Shown here: piece by piece, positions 576-12,838 of the stretch
Position numbering within the stretch: position 1 is the first letter of the stretch
Layout: each line of letters starts with the position of its first letter
From: Dictyostelium discoideum
Taxonomy: Eukaryota
NCBI GenBank assembly: GCA_000004695.1
Contig: CM000150.2
Coordinates: 3,456,001 to 3,520,000 of the forward strand
Reading direction: 5' to 3'
Length of the DNA stretch: 64,000 nucleotides
Translations under genes and position numbers: made by a program
The notes under the pieces: model-generated
The model's database searches: none
What the model saw: the letters and a program-made list of their open reading frames with translations, nothing else
Told to the model about the DNA's origin: nothing

Positions 576-662
576 ATGAAAAGTATATACTTTATATTTA
601 TTTTATTAATAGTAATAGTAAATAGTATAGTAAAATCTCAAGAGATATTAAATTATTATATA

Positions 663-747
<85 letters not shown>

Positions 748-3719
748 GTAGTGATGGTGGTAATGGTACAATTACAAATCCATACCAAAGTTTATGTCAA
801 TTAAATAATAACTTAAATAAAAATTATTCGCCTATTATAATTAATATTGCATTTGGTTTTTATAATTCTACAAATTGTACAATAGAAATTAATAATATTA
901 ATGAAATTAAAATAATTCCATATAATGATAATAATAATATTAATAATTATAAAAATGTAATAATAGAAAATATTAAATTAATAATTAATAATTCAAATTT
1001 AAATATAAATGAAATAATAATTACATTTTCATTTAATTATTTTAAACCATTATATATTTGTAATGGTAGTAATGTTAATTTTAATAATGTTGAAATAAGT
1101 TCACCACCATCATCACAATCACTATCACAACCACCATTACCATTATTATTATTATCAACCATAAAATCATCATTTATGTTAATAAATATTATTGATTCAA
1201 ATTTTATACTTTTAAATCAATCAAAATTAATAAATAATGGTGAAGTTGATTTAATAAATTCAAAATTAATTTTAAATGAAAATTCAATATTGGATGGTTT
1301 ATTTATTAATGGTAGAGATAATAGTTTAACAATTATTGAAAATTCTGAAATTATTGATCCAAATTTTTATTTTGAATCAAGTGAATTGTTTATAAATAAT
1401 TCAAAGATTTCAATTAAAAATACAATTTATGAATTCTTTGGATTAAATTATTTTTATTGTTTTAAAATTTCAACATCAATTTTTAAAATGGAAAATACAA
1501 TTATTAAATCATCAATTTATTCTGGTAATGTAATTCTAGTTGGTACTCAAGGTTCTCAATCTACAAATGTAACATTAAACAATATCATTTTAACAGGTTT
1601 AAAAAGTTTTCAATCAATTTTTAAATTTACACTTGGTACTTTTAATATTAATAAAATTACATTTGAAAATTGTATATCATCATGTTTATTTTATATTGAT
1701 TTAATAATTGGTGAAACTTTATTATCAATTAATAATATAAATTTAATTGGTAATAAAAATATAAAATTCATTGAAATTTTAAATCAATCACCATTCTCAC
1801 CACCATTATTAAATATTACAATTTCAAATTTAATTACAACTTGTGATAATACGTACCAAAATTTTATTACAACAATTGAAAATAATAATAGTAATAATAA
1901 TAATAGTAGTAATAATAATAATATTAATTTAAATATTATAAATTCAAAATTAAATTGTATTGGTGAAAGTTGGTTTAGGAATTGTTTAATTTCATTTGAA
2001 AATTTAATTATTGAAACTAGTTTTAAAAATAATTTATTTAATTTTAATAATAATTGTAATGTAATAATTAAATCAAGTATATTTAAAACAAGTAATTATC
2101 CAAATGGTGATGGATTTTTATTTTCAATTGATAATTCAATAGTTGATATTGGTAATTGTACAATTAATAATTGTGAATCACCATTTTTACAATCAAAATT
2201 ATCAAATCTAACAATTAATTCCTGCAATTTTACAAAATCAATTTCTATTGAAAATTCATTACTTTATTCAATTTCATCTATGATGTTAATTAAAAATTGT
2301 AATTTCAATCAATTGAATTATCCAATTTTAATTCATTCAAAAAATTCAAATATTTCTATAATTAATTCAAATATATTAAAATCATCATTTGGTAGATTAC
2401 ATTTAGCATTAATAGAATATTCAAATATAATTTTTAGTGAATTTAATATGACAGAATGTTTCTCTTCAAATAGTTTACTTTATTTTAGTTTAGATAATAC
2501 TACAAGTACTAAAAATTTAAATTATAATTTTTTAATTGAAAATTCAACATTTTTAAAAAATTATGATATGCAAAGTTTAGATGTTAGTTTAATTTATAGT
2601 AAATATATGAATGGAAATATTATTAATAGTAAATTCATTGGGAATTCATTTAGTCCATTAATTAAATCAACTCAATCAACATTATTAATTAAAAATGTAA
2701 CTTATTCAAATAATAGTGGTTCTTTTCATTATGGAAGTAATGATTATTATATTGAGGTTAATGGTTTCACATTAAATAATAGTAGAATTCAATTAGATTA
2801 TCTTTTTGCATTTGAAAATTATTTTAATGTTTTTTTTAAAGATATATTCATCATTAATAATTATCTTAGTCAATATTTATTCATTTTTAATGGTTATATG
2901 TATAATAGTATAACTTTTAATAACTTATTATATATTGATAATTTAATTGTAAATATAAATGGTACTTCAAGAATTCCATTTAATAGTATAATCAATTCGT
3001 CATCTTTATCAACCACATCACAATTTATATTTATAAATAGTGGCTCAATATCATTTAATTCATCAAATATTATAAATAATTTATTACTTTCTTCAATGAT
3101 AAGTATTGAAAATTCAATATTATCATTTTCAGAATGTAATTTATCATTAAATAAATTTCAAGATGTAAATTCTTCAAAATTATTAGACTCTTTTAAATCA
3201 TTAATTATTTTTGAAAATAGTACAATAAATTCAAATATTGGTTCATCAGGTAATGACGAAGGAGTTTTAGTTGGTAAATTACCAGGTTTAATAAATTTAT
3301 TAAATTCAGGAATAAAGATATCATTTTGTAAATTTAAATATAATATATTCCCATTAGATAGAGGTTCTATTATTAGTTATTTTTCAAATAGTTATTTTGA
3401 TAATTATCAATTCAATGTATTTTCATCAGAATTCTCTTCAAATGTTGCAGATATAGGTGGTGTTTTTTATTTTTCAAGTAATTTATTTGATAGTGTTACA
3501 CCATATAATCGTTATAATATTGAATATAATAATTTTTCAAATAATTTTGCAAAAACTGCTGGTGGTGTAATTTGGAGTGATGATTTATTATTTACAACGC
3601 AATTAAATCCTTTTATTTTATCTGTAAACAAATTTTATAATAATTCTTGTATTTTTGGTGAAAATAATTTATCAATTAGTATGTAATTAAAGTATTTTTA
3701 ATTAAAATAATTAAAAACA

Positions 3720-3756
<37 letters not shown>

Positions 3757-4406
3757 AAAATATATTAGTGCCAAAAGATATTTATTTATTTAATAATGAA
3801 CAATATAGTGATGAAATTATAGAATATATATTTTTAGTTAAAAATTATTTTGGTGAAATAGCAACTCAAGTATTTGGTAAATTTAATACATCAATTAAAA
3901 TTAAAACTAATGAAACAATTTTAATTAATGAAACATTTATAACATCAACAATTTATTCTGGTAAAGGTACATTTCAATATAGACTTTATGGTAAAGATTT
4001 AGTTTATACAGTAACAATATTAGATTTAAAACCACAATTATCAATGGATATAAAAATAAAAAATTGTTCACCATTTAAATATTTTGATGGTAATTCAATG
4101 AATTGTATTTATTGTCCAATTGGATACTCATTAAGTGATGAAAAATCAAATTCATGTGTAAAATGTAATAGTGAAATTGTAACTTGTCAATATGGTCAAG
4201 TGTTTTCAAATGAAAATTATTATATGGTTGATAATAGTCCTTTAAAAGTTTATTCATGTGCTAATGATATGTGTAATGGGAATAACACATGTATTGGTGA
4301 TAATAATATTGGTGATTTATGTTACTATTGTACAAATTATCATGAAAGTACTTCAATACAAGCTTCAAAGAATGGTATTCAATGTTGTTCAAATTTCAAT
4401 TTTTAA
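576..4406 (+). CDS. large secreted/membrane Asn-rich glycoprotein precursor (signal peptide, poly-N tract, beta-helix-like Asn/Ile-rich repeats, C-terminal Cys-rich EGF/TNFR-like module); exons 576..3678 and 3769..4406
   Basis: ATG 576 followed by hydrophobic signal peptide MKSIYFIFILLIVIVNSIVKSQ; (AAT)27 encodes poly-N 664-746; many N-x-S/T sequons; GTATGT donor at 3679 and (T)28..TTAG acceptor ending 3768 give a phase-1 intron (90 bp) that joins ORF 576..3686 to ORF 3768..4406 (which itself lacks an ATG) as ...NNLSI-M-PKDIY...; exon 2 has >20 Cys in C-x2-C / C-x-C spacing. Confidence 0.55.
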
Positions 4407-4572
4407 CTTGAATGAAAATTTTTCTTTTCATATAGAATTAGTATTTTACCATTATTTAGAATTTCTATTGATTTCTTTGATGGTTATTGTTATTTTAGTG
4501 GTTTAAATTATTTACATAAAGTTTTAATATCAAATTTAATTATTCTCTTTTTATTTATTATTAGTTATTCAG

Positions 4573-5399
4573 ATTTAACAATATGGTTGTTAAATAAATT
4601 TTTAAAAAAAAGAATTATAAATTTACCAAAATCAATTAGAATTATTTTAAAAAGAAATAATAATATTAATAATAATGATATAGTTTATAAAATTAAATGT
4701 TTATGGTCACTATTTCAATTATTATTTATACCAATAATGTTTAATTCAATATCATTATTAGTTAATAAAGTTGTAAATAATGAAAATTTATTAATAATAG
4801 ATTTTACAATTAAATACTTTGGTGGTAATGAATTTCAAATATTATTATCAACATTTTCAATTATAATTATTATTTTAATTTCATTTATTTTAATATCATT
4901 TACAATTATTAATTTAAATTTAATTAATAATAGATTGTTATTATCAAATCATTATTATTTAAATTTAAAAAGAATGATTTCAAAATTAAATTATAGAAAT
5001 GGATTTAAATGGTGGGATATAGTCATTTTAATAAGATCAATCATTTTCATAACACTTTCATTATCAATGATATTCAATCCAATTGATTTCATGCCAATTA
5101 TAATTGCAATTCAATTAATTTATACAATAATTTTCATTTTTATTAATCCTAAAAAAAATGAATTATCAACTTCATCTTTTAAAAAATTAAATATAATAAC
5201 CTCAACAATCACAATATCAGATCCACATAATATTTTAAATATAATTCAATCATTTATATTCATTAGTGTTGGTTCATCATTATTTTTAAAACTTTTACCA
5301 AATATTAGAGGTTTAATTATAACTTGTACATCACTTTTTTTATTTATTTTTTTTATTTTTATATTTAAAAATAATAATAATAATTATAATAAAAAATAA
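4573..5399 (+). CDS. polytopic (about 6-7 TM) membrane region, probably the 3' exon of the 576..4406 gene; junction unresolved
   Basis: Frame 0 (same as exon 2) is open 4416..5399 and encodes 6-7 hydrophobic helices; separated from exon 2 only by stops at 4404 and 4413; a 3n-length intron from a weak phase-1 donor (GTATTC 4375, or GTTGTT 4384 / GTTCAA 4387) to acceptor ttattcAG 4571-72 would join them; no ATG with upstream context for an independent gene except Met at about 4972. Confidence 0.35.
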
Positions 5400-5466
5400 T
5401 AAGATGGTGGGAATAATTTATATATACAATATTAGTTGTTTTTATTATTTTTTTATTTTTTTTTTT

Positions 5467-6535: not shown

Positions 6536-6791
6536 GGAATGTGGAATAAACCTCACACAGATTTTTAATAATCCTTTTTATAAATATTTTTATTATTTTA
6601 AATCAAGTTATCAAAATTTTAATTTTTTATTTGTGTTTTTAATTTTTTTTTTTTTTGTTTTATTTTTTTTTTTTTTTTATTTGTTTATTTTTTAAAAATG
6701 TGAAATGAATCCCACAAAGATTTTTAATAATCATTTTTACTAATATTTTTTATTATTTCCAAACAAGTTATCAAACTTTTTTTAATTTTTT
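6536..6791. repeat. two about 93-bp direct repeats (6536-6628 and 6695-6791, about 85% identity) in the PPIL1 / LRR-IPT intergenic region
   Basis: …aatgtggaataaacctcacacagatttttaataatcctttttataaatatttttattattttaaatcaagttatcaaaattttaatttttt versus …aatgtgaaatgaatcccacaaagatttttaataatcatttttactaatattttttattatttccaaacaagttatcaaactttttttaatttttt. Confidence 0.85.
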
Positions 6792-6819
6792 TTTAATCTC
6801 CCAAAAATTAAAAAAAAAA

Positions 6820-6851
<32 letters not shown>

Positions 6852-7058
6852 GTTGACCAGTGGAATTAAACAAAAAAAAAAAAAAAAATAAACAAAAAAA
6901 TTTCAAAATTTTTAACCTGTTTAAATAATGACAAAATCAATCAAAATATTACCAGGAACAGTAATTTTGAAAAAAAAAAAAGAAAAAAAGAAAGATTTGA
7001 AAAAAAAAAAAGTTCGCACATAATTTTTTTCATACTTGTAAAATATATAATAAATTAA

Positions 7059-7090
<32 letters not shown>

Positions 7091-7313
7091 TTAAAAAATA
7101 ATAATTAATAAAAAAAAAAAAAATAATAATAATAATAATAAATAATAAATAATAAATAATAAATAATAAATAATAAATAACAATAATAAAAATAAAAATA
7201 AAAATAATTAATAATAAATAATAATAATAAATAAAAATAATAAATAATAATATTAATAATAAAATAAAAATAAATAAATAAATAAAAATATTTATTATAA
7301 ATAAATTTGGAAA

Positions 7314-7758
7314 ATGAAAAAAAGAAATAGTTTTCTTTTTATTATATTTCTATGTCTAATTTGTATGATTAATATTGCTTCATCACAAAATTTTATACCA
7401 TTACATGGGGATCAAGATAAAATAGCAGATAAAATTTGTCAACAAATTTCTCAAGGTGCTGTTCAATGCCTAGACCCATGCAAAGAAAGTTATGAGATTT
7501 TCACTTGCAAACTTAGACCAAATACCGATAAATATGATATAGATACAATTAACTTAAAAATAGTTCCTTCATCAGGTATTGAAACCTCTGAAGTTATAGA
7601 AAGTTTTGTTCAATTTAGTCATCTAACCAAATTAACAATTACCGAAGAAATTACAGTTAGAGATCTTTGGGGAAAACTTTTATATGAATATCCAAGTCCT
7701 TTAGAAATGTATGTAAAAATAATAACCTTTTAAAAAATTTAAATTTCTTGTATAATTT

Positions 7759-7804
<46 letters not shown>

Positions 7805-9781
7805 ATATAGTTATATTGTTAGACAAATGGAAAAAATGCCAGATAATTTAACAATGCCAAAAAGATTATGGAAACTTACATTTGGAAAGATTGGTGTACA
7901 AATGCCTTCAAATATGTTTAATGTTACAAGTGATTTAGAATTTTTACAAATTGATACCATTTTGAACACTGGTGTTAATGTATTTCCAGCAAAACATCCA
8001 GAACCAAAGAGTTTGAAAACTTTTATTGGACCAATTACATATTATTCAAATTTCTTCCCATATCCAAGTTATGCATTGCAATTTTGCGAAACCATTCGTC
8101 TTAGAGTCTGGAATGATTACTCTGGTACAAATTATAAAGATTTTAGATTACCAGTTCTATCAAATTTATTATATCTCAAAGATTTAACATATGAATTTAT
8201 TAATAATGATTTTACCGCTCAAATTTTTACATTTGATTATGCAATCTCATCAAATAAAGCTTTGAAATCTTTAACTATTACTGGTAAAGGTATGAGAATG
8301 ACAAGAGATCTTGATCTTTCAAATTTAGCAAAAGGTGCTCATATTTCAATTGATAGAAGTTGTGATGAATTTTTAGCATGTGGTAGTGAACCATGTTTAA
8401 AATTACCAGTAGATGGTTCTTTGTAAGTTTTTTTATATATATATAATATAAATTTTCATTACTTTTATAATATTACTATGTATTAATTAATATATTTTTT
8501 TTTTTTATAAAAATTTATAGATATATTAATAAATGTAATTTCACACTTTCAAAAATTGATTTTTTAAATGCTGTATCAGTTACAATTTTAAATAATAATC
8601 TTGCACAAAATTTACCAAATTTAAGAATTAATTATCCAAAATTAACAAGATTTGATCTTGGTGATAGTAATTTCGCAGGTACAGTTCCAAATGAATATTG
8701 TTTAATTAAAGAAAGTGTATTAAGTGTTGGAAACAATAGATTATCAGGTGTTGTACCTTCATGTTTCGGTTGTGTTGGTGGTGCATTTGTTGCTAGTCAA
8801 GGATTATTCCCAAATAGTTTTACAGATTTTTCAGAGAGTGCTGCACCAACTGCTTGTGAAACTTTCCAAGTATTCGATAATTATTCAAAGGTTGCAAAAA
8901 CTGATGGTAGTTCAGTTATTACTGTTTATGGTCAAGATTTCGGTTGGACATCTACAACCAAACAAGGTGACGCAAGCATTAACATAATTGTACCAAATAG
9001 ACAATTAGAACTTGTTATTCCAAAAGGTGTTGGTACAGATTTGAAATATGTAGCAACTTTCCCTGTTGGTCCAAATGGAATCGATAAAGAGTTTACATTT
9101 AGTTATCAACAACCAGTTATTCGTTATTATTCATTCCTTAAAACTGACACTGCTAATTTCTTTGTTATTAATGGTGATGGTTTCGATTATCAAGGTATTA
9201 ATTCAGTTGAAATTGAAAAAAGTGAATTTCCAAAAAAAACATACGATGGACCAAGTGCTGACGTCGGTGCAACATATGGTGAAATTAAATTACCATTGGA
9301 TGATGTTATTATTGATAATGAACTCGCATCTGGTGCTGTTTTCAAAATTACAGTAACTGTTGGTGGTCAAACCTCAACACAACAATTCACTTATTATGAT
9401 TCAATTACAATCTCTGATGTTGATACTATTAAATTACATACAATTGGTGGTGTTCAAGAATTCAAGGGTCAATTCCCCCCAGTTGATGCAAGTGCCGTCC
9501 AAGTTACTGTTAATAATGTTCCATGTGATATTCGTAAATATTCTGAAACTTCCATTGAAATTGCTTATCCAGCTGTACCAGGTGCAAGTCATTATCCAAT
9601 TAAAATAGTTGTTGGTGGTCTCACTGCTGGAGAATTGGTTGAATTCATTGAGTTACCAACACATAGACCAACATTCGATCCAAATGATGGTTGGATGCCA
9701 ACTGGTTCATCATCAACTTTATTACCAAGTTTCTTTTTAATTTTTATTATTTCTTCTTTATTAATTATTAAATTATTTTAA
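7314..9781 (+). CDS. secreted, probably GPI-anchored leucine-rich-repeat + IPT/TIG-domain protein; 3 exons 7314..7708, 7811(or 7823)..8422, 8521..9781, about 750 aa
   Basis: Signal peptide MKKRNSFLFIIFLCLICMINIASS; GTATGT donor 7709, acceptor tatatAG 7810 (alternative AG 7822), GTAAGT donor 8423, acceptor tttatAG 8520; exon 3 frame open 8521..9781 with plant-type LRR motifs (LSGVVPSCFG, NFAGTVPNEYC) and Ig-like IPT repeats, ending in hydrophobic GPI-signal-like tail SSSTLLPSFFLIFIISSLLIIKLF*. Confidence 0.7.
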
Positions 9782-10539
9782 ATAAAAACCATAAAAAAAA
9801 ATATATATATATATATATTTAAAACAAAAAAAATAAAAAAAACAAAAAATATAATTATATTTTTAATTATTTTATTGCCAATAATTTAATTTAATCAACT
9901 CATTTTTACTTTTAATATTGATTCAATATCCACCAATATAAATATATTTAAAACAAAAAAAAAAAAAATAAAAAAAAAATAAAAAAAATAAAAAAAAAAA
10001 TAATAATAATCAAAATAAATCAGATTCTTTGAGATACTCATTCTCATTAGTTAAATGGATTATTATAATTTTTTTTTTTTATTGTTATCTAACTTAAGTT
10101 AATTATTTTCAACATTTTTTTTTTTTTTTCTTTTTTTTTTTTAAAAAAATTCTATAATCAAAATTTTATATTTTTTTTATTTTTTATTATTTTTTTTACT
10201 AATTTGAGTATTTTTATTTAGGTTTTGTATTTGATGTGGTTTTGTTTTACAAATAAAAAAATTCAAATTATTTTGGGATAATTAATAATTAATTCCCGCA
10301 TTATGACGCAATATAGGGTGTGATTGATGAATAAAAAATATCAGCTAAATTTTTTTTTTTTTTTTATTTTTTATTTTTTTTTTATTTTTTAATTTTTTTT
10401 TTTTATAAAAACTCAAATAAAATAAAAAAAAAAAAAAAAAAAAAAAGTTCATTTTTTTGAAAAGACACAACCACCAAATATAATTATAATCATTTTCTTT
10501 TTTTTTTAATTTTTTTTTTTAAAATATATTAAATTCCTT

Positions 10540-10583
<44 letters not shown>

Positions 10584-10586
<3 letters not shown>

Positions 10587-12271
10587 AGGACAGATAACAT
10601 TAGAAATAGAAAAGAACAATTAAAAAAACAAGAGAAAAAAGATTTTGATTCGTCAAAAGATGAAGAAACCAGTACATCTGATGAAGAAGAAAGTAGTGGA
10701 GGGAATAGAAGTAAAATAGCAGGAAAAGAGAATCATCAAAATAAAAATATAATAAATCAAAAAACAAATAATAATAATAATAATAACAATATAAAAGAGA
10801 AAGATATAATTGATAGTTCAGTAAACAATGCTGACAATTTAAAAGCAACAGATCCGCCATCTGCAAAATATAAAAAATTAGCAATTCGTTCAGTTATGGG
10901 TGCATTTATGATTGGTTTCTTTACAATCGTATTATCAACTGATCATTTCATCGTTGCATTATTTGTAATCGCCCTTCAATTATTAGTATTCAAAGAGATG
11001 ATTGCATTAAGATACATTGAAGCAAAAGAGAAAAAGATTCCACACTTTAGAACTCTCAATTGGTTCTTTTTATTCACTTCTTTCTTCTTCTTTTATGCTA
11101 AACCAATCTTAATCACTTTAGCAAACTATTATCCTGACATCTTTCAACATTTTGTAAGATATCATCTATGGCATTCTTTCTCATTATATTGTATTGGTAT
11201 GTATTTTAATTATTATTATTATTTTTATAATTAAAATGTATATTAACCATTTATAAATAATTATATAAAGGATTCGTATTATTTATTTTAACATTAAGAA
11301 AGGGTGTTTACAGATATCAATTTTCACAATTAACTTGGACTCTTATGATTTTAATGATGGTAGTTGTTCAATCAAATTTCTTAATTTCAAATATTTATCA
11401 AGGTCTCATTTGGTTCATCTTACCAGTATCTATTATCGTTTGTAATGATATCTTTGCTTATTTCAATGGTTTCTTTTTAGGTAAAAAGTAAGTTCACATA
11501 CTATATTCAATATTAATATTTCAATTAAAACTAATTTTTTTAATTTTTTTTATTTATAAATTTAGATTCATTAATAGACCATTAATGAAGATTTCACCAA
11601 ATAAAACATGGGAAGGTTTCATTGGTGCAACTGGTTGGACATTATTATTTGCTTATTATTTCTGTGGTTTCTTACTTAAATATGATTGGATTGTATGTCC
11701 AAAAGGTAATACTGGTTTTATGGAATCATTACATTGTACTAGAGATCCAGTATTCTTGGAAAAAGAATTTATTTTCCCACCAGAAATAACTACAATTGCT
11801 TTTAAATATGTAAGTTTATAAAAATATTTTTATTAATTTAATTAAATTATTTTATTTTATTAATTTAAAATTTTATTTATTTTATTTTTAAATTTTATTA
11901 TATAGTTGGGTATTACATTATTACCATTTACATATATTCCAATTCAATTCCATGCATTAGTTTTAGCATTATTTGGATCATTGATTGCACCATTTGGAGG
12001 TTTCTTTGCATCAGGTATTAAGAGAGCATACAAGGTTAAAGATTTCGATACTATCTTCCCAGGTCATGGTGGTGTTACCGATAGAACTGATTGTCAATTC
12101 ATTATGGGTCTTTTCATTCACGTCTATTACAATACCTTTATCAAAACTCTTGAAATCGATCCAACCTTTATTTGGCAAAATATTATGATGTTGTCAATGG
12201 AGGAGAAAATGGTAATCTATGAGAAATTGAAACAATCCATAGAGTTTACCACTGGTACTATTACTGCATAG
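10584..12271 (+). CDS. cdsA: phosphatidate cytidylyltransferase (CDP-diacylglycerol synthase); 4 exons 10584..11196, 11271..11487, 11566..11809, 11906..12271, about 479 aa
   Basis: Collinear with human CDS1: ...FRTLNWFFL..., exon 2 [72 protein letters not shown], exon 3 [21 protein letters not shown]..., exon 4 ...[42 protein letters not shown] (CTP-transferase signature); donors GTATGT / GTAAGT / GTAAGT, phases 1 / 2 / 0 all consistent. Confidence 0.85.
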
Positions 12272-12361
12272 TCCATGTATCTTTATCATCCAACATTTAA
12301 ATTAATAATAATAATAACTTTTAGTTTTAATTATAAAATATTATTCAAATTTAGTCAATAA

Positions 12362-12396
<35 letters not shown>

Positions 12397-12499
12397 AAAA
12401 ATAATAATAATAATAATAATAATAGTTCGATAAGATTTAATAAAATTTAATAATTTTAGAAAAACAAAAAAAAAAACATTTATTATTTTAAAATTATAT

Positions 12500-12838
12500 T
12501 TATTCATCATTATCATCATCTTTATATACACTATATTTATTATATGATGAGTCTGTTAAAATAAATTGATCATTTTTTGATTGTTGTTTACTAATACCAT
12601 AAAAGTCATCAGCCGAATCATCAGAGTCATCGTCATCGTCGTCTGTTTGAAATTGCCCCCAACCATTATTATTATTATTTATGATTGGTTTATTATAAAA
12701 TTGATTTGTATTATTCAATTGATTTGTATTATTGATACTATTTAGTTTATTTTCATTTTCATTATTAGTTTGTGATTTTCTTATAAGATCCAAATATTTT
12801 TCATTGTTTTTTGAGTTGATTTCATTATTGATGTTATT

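Follow-up and report, generated by a model that had tools for sequence, protein, structure and literature searches.

A probable recently disrupted allele of a dictyostelid gene family that joins a beta-helix ectodomain to a polytopic membrane domain

Background

The parallel beta-helix fold is typical of carbohydrate-binding adhesins and polysaccharide-active proteins. Among animal surface proteins, fibrocystin/PKHD1 and CEMIP/TMEM2 display parallel beta-helix (PbH1) repeats together with one transmembrane (TM) helix and G8 or other domains, although homology to these is not claimed here. The subject of this report is a gene at positions 576-5399 of a 64,000-nucleotide stretch of Dictyostelium discoideum DNA (GenBank assembly GCA_000004695.1, contig CM000150.2, positions 3,456,001 to 3,520,000, forward strand), referred to as the window. 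An earlier sequence-only reading had described this region as a secreted Asn-rich ectodomain with a Cys-rich module, possibly spliced to a seven-TM tail in the manner of a giant adhesion G-protein-coupled receptor (GPCR). We propose instead that it is, in all probability, a recently disrupted allele of a gene family specific to the dictyostelids. The intact gene would comprise two exons and specify a protein of ~1,590 amino acids (aa), in which a signal peptide is followed by a right-handed beta-helix of ~820 residues, a beta-sandwich, a Cys-rich stalk of ~110 aa and a nine-helix membrane domain. One complex deletion-plus-filler event would have removed 108 nucleotides (nt), that is TM1 and most of TM2, and left two in-frame stops. 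The family is an orphan one, with an unusual architecture and a membrane domain without recognisable relatives.

Reading frames and gene structure

The ATG at position 576 starts a 1,036-codon open reading frame (ORF) on the + strand, as are all features of this gene given below. Exon 1 (576-3678), delimited by its ORF and the derived splice phase, is homologous to the family ectodomains and is followed by the sole real intron of the gene (3679-3768; GTATGTAAT...TATATTAG, i.e. GTATGT...TTAG), which is in phase 1 and contains 5.6% G+C. The same intron is implied in isolate locus L004 by the gene span and product length. It joins exon 1 to 3769-4403 to give a product of 1,246 aa, so that the ~1,250-aa secreted ORF proposed earlier stands once this intron is allowed for. 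Two stops in frame 0 come next, TAA at 4404-4406 and TGA at 4413-4415, after which the frame reopens from 4416 to 5396 with its terminal stop at 5397-5399; the coordinates and frames of the sequence-only reading, including the stops followed by an in-frame tail, were thus reproduced.

The stranded tail ORF (4416-5399; 327 codons plus stop) carries the TM2-3 extracellular loop (FFSYRISILPLFRISIDFFDGYC) and TM3 to TM9, contains seven strongly hydrophobic segments and is 95% identical to residues 1269-1575 of P0002, a protein from another isolate. Its first ATG does not occur before codon 108. In DNA of ~15% G+C, with a per-codon stop probability of ~0.10, the three stretches would be open by chance with probabilities of 1.6e-48, 1.5e-10 and 3.3e-15, and are therefore far beyond chance; no ORF longer than 103 codons was found in the other frames of the region.

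Relatives and intact alleles

An exhaustive phmmer search of 1.84 billion proteins with the tail (4416-5396) returned 14 matches to family members, with E-values from 3e-162 to 4e-6, and the source was a dictyostelid in all 11 matches that were looked up. The full-length matches measure 1,494-1,655 aa, and the tail aligns at their extreme C-terminus. Their ectodomains are homologous as well: family proteins aligned by tblastn span 1566-5336 (P0003) and 1950-4763 (P0006) of the window, and both tblastn and the family alignment place a homologous beta-helix ectodomain, with a Cys-rich module ending KNGIQCCS, in the window gene. Because the full-length homologues carry the tail directly after the ectodomain, the earlier suggestion that ectodomain and polytopic tail belong to one gene held up on comparison of orthologues.

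The top match was P0002 (95% identity), which, like P0016, comes from one of two other D. discoideum isolates. The isolate genes are syntenic with that of the window, lying between fatty-acid desaturase and cyclophilin genes, and each allele specifies a single uninterrupted product of ~1,590 aa. The junction is intron-free coding sequence that reads ...NGIQCCSNFKPILLLPVFLIFLIFALLLSILKYTIFNSILGSIIIFIQVNSVVFFSYRISILPLF..., or in a longer stretch ...KNGIQCCSNFKPILLLPVFLIFLIFALLLSILKYTIFNSILGSIIIFIQVNSVVFFSYRISILPLFRISIDF.... The window allele fails to give an uninterrupted ORF from ectodomain to tail via TM1-TM2, which makes it a disrupted member of the family. To judge from the aligned sequences, the two halves are one gene, joined in intact alleles by continuous coding sequence and not by splicing.

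The orthologues of the window gene in the isolates are KAM9960609.1 (1,581 aa) and KAM9961660.1 (1,587 aa). Further uncharacterised relatives are D. discoideum DDB_G0272102 (Q55A59, 1,652 aa), D. firmibasis RB653_007406, D. purpureum DICPUDRAFT_76333, Tieghemostelium DLAC_10210 and Acytostelium SAMD00019534_016050. The dictyostelid relatives have the same architecture as the window gene and share with it the motifs GNGTI.NP, PMP-like FxxN...GGxxY, KNGIQCCS, IFIQxNSxxFFSY.GIYILPLFR.SID, WSLFQ..IPL.FN and FKWWD, the last two lying in the tail along with IQ..Y and QLIIF; unlike them, the window allele is without TM1 and TM2 and is split by two stops. With about five loci in D. discoideum, the family ranges from Acytostelium to Dictyostelium. 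Database names of the relatives are limited to 'hypothetical' or 'transmembrane protein', the identifiers of two AX4 paralogues were not mentioned in the literature searched, and a literature search for beta-helix or PMP proteins in Dictyostelium was also without matches.

The lesion

Pairwise and multiple alignments with isolate loci L003 and L004 and with the D. dimigraforme copy place the lesion at 4393-4421, where a net loss of 108 nt (36 codons) is accompanied by a scrambled remnant containing the TAA and TGA. Compared with the intact alleles, the missing sequence falls between ~4393 and 4419 and encodes TM1 and most of TM2. In the 18 nt past the gap the window reads TAA CTT GAA TGA AAA TTT versus CAA GTT AAT TCA GTA GTT in intact alleles, i.e. 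eight substitutions, two of which make the stops, against a background divergence of 2-3%. These changes look to be the product of a single complex deletion-plus-filler event. For the filler at 4400-4421, a local template was sought without success.

Elsewhere in the coding sequence, all indels that separate the window from L003 have lengths divisible by three, bar one compensated cluster at 1102-1138 (net -6 nt) in a low-complexity linker. The ratio of nonsynonymous to synonymous substitution rates (dN/dS) between window and isolate alleles lies at 0.24-0.30 in the ectodomain and 0.27-0.30 in the tail, with synonymous divergence of roughly 6-7%. Since dN/dS is low in both halves, both were under purifying selection over most of the period of divergence, which makes the break recent relative to it.

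Translation from the ATG at 576 would end at 4406 and yield at most an unanchored glycoprotein of 1,246 aa, which would be secreted since it has no membrane anchor, or else no stable product. Lacking its own start codon, the TM3-TM9 frame would survive as an untranslated relic, still open only because the lesion is young. Our best reading of the allele is that it is either null or a source of secreted ectodomain.

Several points weigh against this interpretation. When changes were polarised with D. firmibasis P0003 as outgroup, which is not syntenic with the window locus, most sites were ambiguous; window-derived changes stood to isolate-derived ones as 3:1 in the tail and as 6:4 in the ectodomain. 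The ORF of the ectodomain shows no break at all, which fits a still-useful secreted protein as well as a young pseudogene. The GenBank automatic annotation of a second assembly, GCA_054883475.1, gives one 1,517-aa gene spanning the break. The nine-helix model described below is of only moderate confidence, with an alignment of 11 sequences, and the function assigned to the family is drawn from fold analogy only.

Alternative explanations

The main rival holds that the locus is still one functional gene, in which a weak new intron (e.g. 4384-4521, 138 nt; 4387-4521; or 4375-4521) skips the stops and fuses the ectodomain to TM3-TM9 as a seven-helix variant. The sequence-only reading had similarly pointed to a possible spliced junction between about 4375-4390 and 4573. 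We think this improbable. All single and double GT-AG intron models restoring the frame were enumerated, and in-frame pairs do exist, but their donors (GTTGTT, GTTCAA and GTATTC) are poor and unlike the verified GTA[AT][GT]T donors of the window, where seven of the seven checkable introns start GTAAGT, GTATGT or GTAATT (intron 1 of this gene, two in cycloartenol synthase, one in DDB_G0269748 and three in ppil1). The candidate intron has an exon-like 18.5% G+C versus 5.6% for the real one, has coding sequence as its homologue in all intact relatives, and would remove the best-conserved motif of the family, IFIQVNSVVFFSY.GIYILPLFR.SID..DG.C, as well as NGIQCC. It is true that the annotation of GCA_054883475.1, whose product ends at window 5435, agrees in length with a 138-nt intron at 4384-4521 and a further, terminal one; the same pipeline, however, made a demonstrably false terminal intron in P0002, and the reconstructed 1,517-aa model was absent on exact look-up. 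Without the TM1-TM2 hairpin, TM3-TM9 would keep their N-out topology, and dN/dS in the tail, whose ORF has stayed open, is ~0.3. With the intact junction intron-free and no credible GT-AG pair restoring the frame, the splice proposed earlier was not supported.

Short GT-AG candidates with plausible acceptors (4435, 4441 and 4459) are all of length 1 mod 3 and do not restore the frame. A +1/-1 double frameshift, suggested by a TM-like reading of frame +1 ('LEFLLISLMVIVILVV'), was dropped because the intact alleles show frame 0 to be ancestral.

We give very little credence to a reading as two unconnected genes, one for a secreted beta-helix glycoprotein (576-4406) and one for a seven-TM protein (about 4573-5399). 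Although the stops part the ORFs, and that of the ectodomain has its own ATG and signal peptide, the first ATG of the tail falls inside TM4, the ~10 nt between the ORFs leave no room for a promoter, and every full-length homologue is a fusion of the two.

A giant adhesion-GPCR-like seven-TM receptor of a known GPCR class is equally hard to sustain. No Pfam match to 7tm_1/2/3, Frizzled, Dicty_CAR or GAIN/GPS was obtained at E<=1 with 11 tails or at E<=0.1 with six full-length proteins, neither PDB sequences (E<=1) nor Foldseek against solved structures gave a match to a GPCR fold, and the domain has nine helices when intact. The same searches agree with the remark in the sequence-only reading that the architecture matches neither the cAMP-receptor nor the Frizzled-like families.

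Finally, it is scarcely credible that errors of sequencing or assembly produced the stops and the loss of 108 nt, even in error-prone AT-rich and homopolymer-filled DNA, since a 108-nt gap with eight clustered substitutions is no homopolymer slip and the separately deposited GCA_054883475.1 (L001) has a junction identical to that of the window while differing by one single-nucleotide polymorphism in 4.1 kb and a 24-nt length offset somewhere in window 6600-12500, which marks it as an independent assembly and the lesion as no assembly error.

If, as we propose, this is a recently disrupted allele, the locus should be modelled neither as a spliced 1,517-aa gene nor as two genes. The broken allele is strain-specific, with intact alleles in other D. 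discoideum isolates, and work on the family in AX4-derived laboratory strains would be work on a natural truncation.

Ectodomain

The putative signal peptide (MKSIYFIFILLIVIVNSIVKSQ; 576-641) was read from the sequence by its Met-Lys start, 13-residue hydrophobic core and small-residue c-region. It is conserved in orthologues P0002 and P0016, in agreement with the earlier assignment. A poly-Asn tract, (AAT)n, occupies 663-746 and is 63 nt longer than in L003. The 1,246-aa product consists of 18% Asn, 13.5% Ile and 13% Ser, and includes 31 Cys residues, 13 of them within aa 1134-1241. The Asn/Ile-rich region had been credited with dozens of N-glycosylation sequons; 40 N-x-S/T sequons were indeed counted in the product, without excess over composition (39.5 +/- 5.3 in shuffles), so that the sequons are no signal in themselves.

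The ectodomain was modelled with AlphaFold2 on an isolate orthologue 95.7% identical to that of the window, with a mean predicted local distance difference test score (pLDDT) of 77.8. A small N-terminal beta cap (768-1085) precedes a right-handed parallel beta-helix of ~820 aa (1176-3638; window aa 201-1021), built of rungs of three short strands with pLDDT mostly 85-96. The top Foldseek matches in the PDB were all beta-helix proteins, namely PL6 alginate lyase (2e-4), phage tailspikes, capsule depolymerases, pertactin and Ag43, and model and matches together bear out the beta-helix-like periodicity noted previously. By sequence profile, Pfam Beta_helix (PF13229) passed its cutoff of 25.9 bits only in the Acytostelium member P0013 (48.1 bits), the window protein being sub-threshold. 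Chlam_PMP (PF02415) scored 17.4 and 14.7 bits in P0006 and P0010, below its cutoff of 20.6, and gave no match in the window protein, though motifs of the FSNNFAKTAGGVIW type are visible.

The helix is followed by a beta-sandwich of ~105 aa (3771-4085; window aa 1036-1140), seen as strands at model residues 973-1077. Foldseek matches in the PDB to Ig-like, macroglobulin and FnIII-like domains, with a probability of ~1.0, probably correspond to this part of the model. The Cys-rich stalk module (4086-4403) contains 13 Cys in ~110 aa and ends in the family motif KNGIQCCSNF, with Cys columns that are conserved in the family alignment. The sequence-only reading was right about its presence and, at ~200 aa, overestimated its length; the beta-sandwich lies before it. 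The module is poorly modelled (pLDDT below 50). Ephrin_rec_like (PF07699) scored 15.6 bits at aa 1139-1174, below the Pfam cutoff of 23.1.

Membrane domain

AlphaFold2 was run on the C-terminal 489 aa of P0016 with an alignment of 11 sequences (predicted TM-score, pTM, 0.69; helices mostly of pLDDT 70-90). The intact domain has nine predicted TM helices, with beta-hairpins in the TM2-3 and TM4-5 loops. Mapped onto the window, the remaining helices are TM3 (4509-4568), TM4 with its cytosolic extension (4668-4754), TM5 (4830-4919), TM6 (5013-5069), which has the conserved FKWWD motif just before it, TM7 (5079-5144), TM8 (5223-5288) and TM9 with a short basic cytosolic tail, KNNNNNYNKK (5298-5393). 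That the window keeps only TM3-TM9 explains the earlier count of six to seven helices: the seven hydrophobic segments are real, and they are what is left of nine after the loss of TM1 and TM2. With the N-terminus outside, 20 Lys and Arg residues fall in cytosolic loops versus six in outer loops; by this distribution the modelled topology of the intact protein is N-out, C-in.

No Pfam family matched the membrane domain in any of 11 tail sequences, even at E<=1. A profile of the domain found nothing among PDB sequences at E<=1, and the best Foldseek match among solved structures had an E-value of 0.22 and a TM-score of ~0.1. Within the helices, polar residues are conserved (Q/N/S in TM2, R/K in TM6, Q in TM7 and TM8), and these, together with the modelled extracellular hairpins, suggest that the domain may sense or transport, beyond mere anchoring. 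We tentatively raise the possibility, which we would not call likely, that the nine-helix domain is an undescribed membrane-protein family, perhaps with a new fold, detected so far only in Dictyostelia, that couples a beta-helix of the carbohydrate-binding type to sensing or transport.

Two annotation problems were seen at the C-terminus. The GenBank models of P0002 and of the 1,517-aa product end '...IIT(C/Y)G(G)NNLY(L/I)QY' by way of a spurious terminal intron that deletes TM9 (window 5326-5435; L003 about 7800-7893); the natural ORF end is ...FIFIFKNNNNNYNKK followed by the stop, the same as in P0016 and the paralogues. Outside the window, the model of P0018 (ACTFIT_000850, 1,820 aa) continues after TM8 as ~330 aa of hydrophilic sequence (…NWRTAFIKRLLQIINRK…) without relationship to the family, which probably stems from fusion to a neighbouring or mobile-element ORF. 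A normal TM9 ending is seen instead in the Logan fragment P0004.

By analogy of fold, the intact family protein would most likely be a cell-surface binding protein that holds its beta-helix on a Cys-rich stalk above the polytopic domain. Because it pairs a beta-helix like those of bacterial adhesins with a nine-helix domain of its own kind, the family may reasonably be considered for a role in recognising prey, matrix or kin at the surface of social amoebae, and its membrane domain is a target for structural work. Should the reading as an undescribed membrane-protein family be true, the window allele would be a natural experiment in which the TM1-TM2 hairpin was excised cleanly, to give a free ectodomain or, if the weak splice were used, a topology-preserving seven-helix variant.

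Divergence and decay in the family

The syntenic copy in D. dimigraforme (L002:6400-11700) is a shattered pseudogene with ORF fragments of 113-178 aa. It shows several frameshifts, has lost ~760 nt of the beta-helix and everything after TM4, and contains an unrelated insert of ~1.3 kb (about 8184-9500). The state of this copy indicates that the locus is dispensable in some lineages and prone to decay. A further AX4 gene outside the window, DDB_G0268930 (P0009, 987 aa), looks truncated compared with its closest D. firmibasis relative, P0003 (1,578 aa; L005:4001-8815), its model being without signal peptide, Cys-rich module and TM1-TM3. The P0003 gene is followed by another of at least 1,654 aa, possibly a tandem paralogue. 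Taken together, the broken window copy, the shattered D. dimigraforme copy and the apparent truncation of DDB_G0268930 suggest birth-and-death turnover in the family.

In-frame length polymorphism distinguishes the alleles, for instance at window 663-725, 1886-1909 and other (AAT)n or Ser-rich tracts, with the 63 nt of poly-Asn and indels of 21 and 24 nt. Relative to L003 and L004 the locus is 2-3% divergent overall and ~4% in intergenic sequence, and even the desaturase has a synonymous divergence (dS) of 0.04-0.06. Diversity within D. discoideum is very low according to a 2025 preprint; given the divergence at this locus, the isolates with L003 and L004 may represent a divergent lineage.

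Neighbouring regions

The gene is flanked in the window by an FA_desaturase gene on one side and a Pro_isomerase (cyclophilin) gene, ppil1, on the other. The window is extremely AT-rich. Other window ORFs match exactly, in translation, the AX4 chromosome 1 proteins DDB_G0269762 and DDB_G0269764, so that the window stems from AX4 or from a strain almost identical to it. The next gene past ppil1 (7314-9800, + strand) specifies a putatively secreted protein of ~738 aa that contains Cys and gives a faint TIG-domain signal; TIG/IPT domains are also borne by Tgr-type recognition proteins. Introns of cycloartenol synthase and DDB_G0269748 (22549-23272 and 18402-18631, - strand) consist largely of very long perfect (ATT)n/(AAT)n arrays of ~100-190 nt.

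Comparison with known systems

In overall design the family recalls the adhesion GPCRs (family B2), which likewise combine a very large, adhesive-looking ectodomain with an N-out/C-in polytopic domain; unlike them, the dictyostelid proteins have no GAIN/GPS, nine predicted helices rather than seven, and no detectable relationship in sequence or fold. In the stalk, the C-x2-C spacing (NCIYCPIGY...CVKC) is like that of Ephrin-receptor-like, TNFR and furin-like Cys repeats, with a sub-threshold Pfam score, and Foldseek matches to the L-domain/Cys-rich region of the insulin and IGF1 receptors have probabilities of 0.5-0.75. For the ectodomain, the counterparts are bacterial beta-helix proteins of the surface, i.e. 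chlamydial polymorphic membrane proteins (PMPs), the autotransporter passenger domains of pertactin and Ag43, polysaccharide lyases and phage tailspikes. These have in common with the dictyostelid proteins a long right-handed parallel beta-helix and FxxN/GG(A/V)(I/V) repeat motifs, with Chlam_PMP sub-threshold in P0006 and P0010. The Foldseek matches include 5gkd, 1dab and 7koh. The intact dictyostelid protein differs from them in being eukaryotic, in adding a beta-sandwich and a Cys-rich stalk, and in carrying as its C-terminal anchor a predicted nine-helix domain in place of a beta-barrel.

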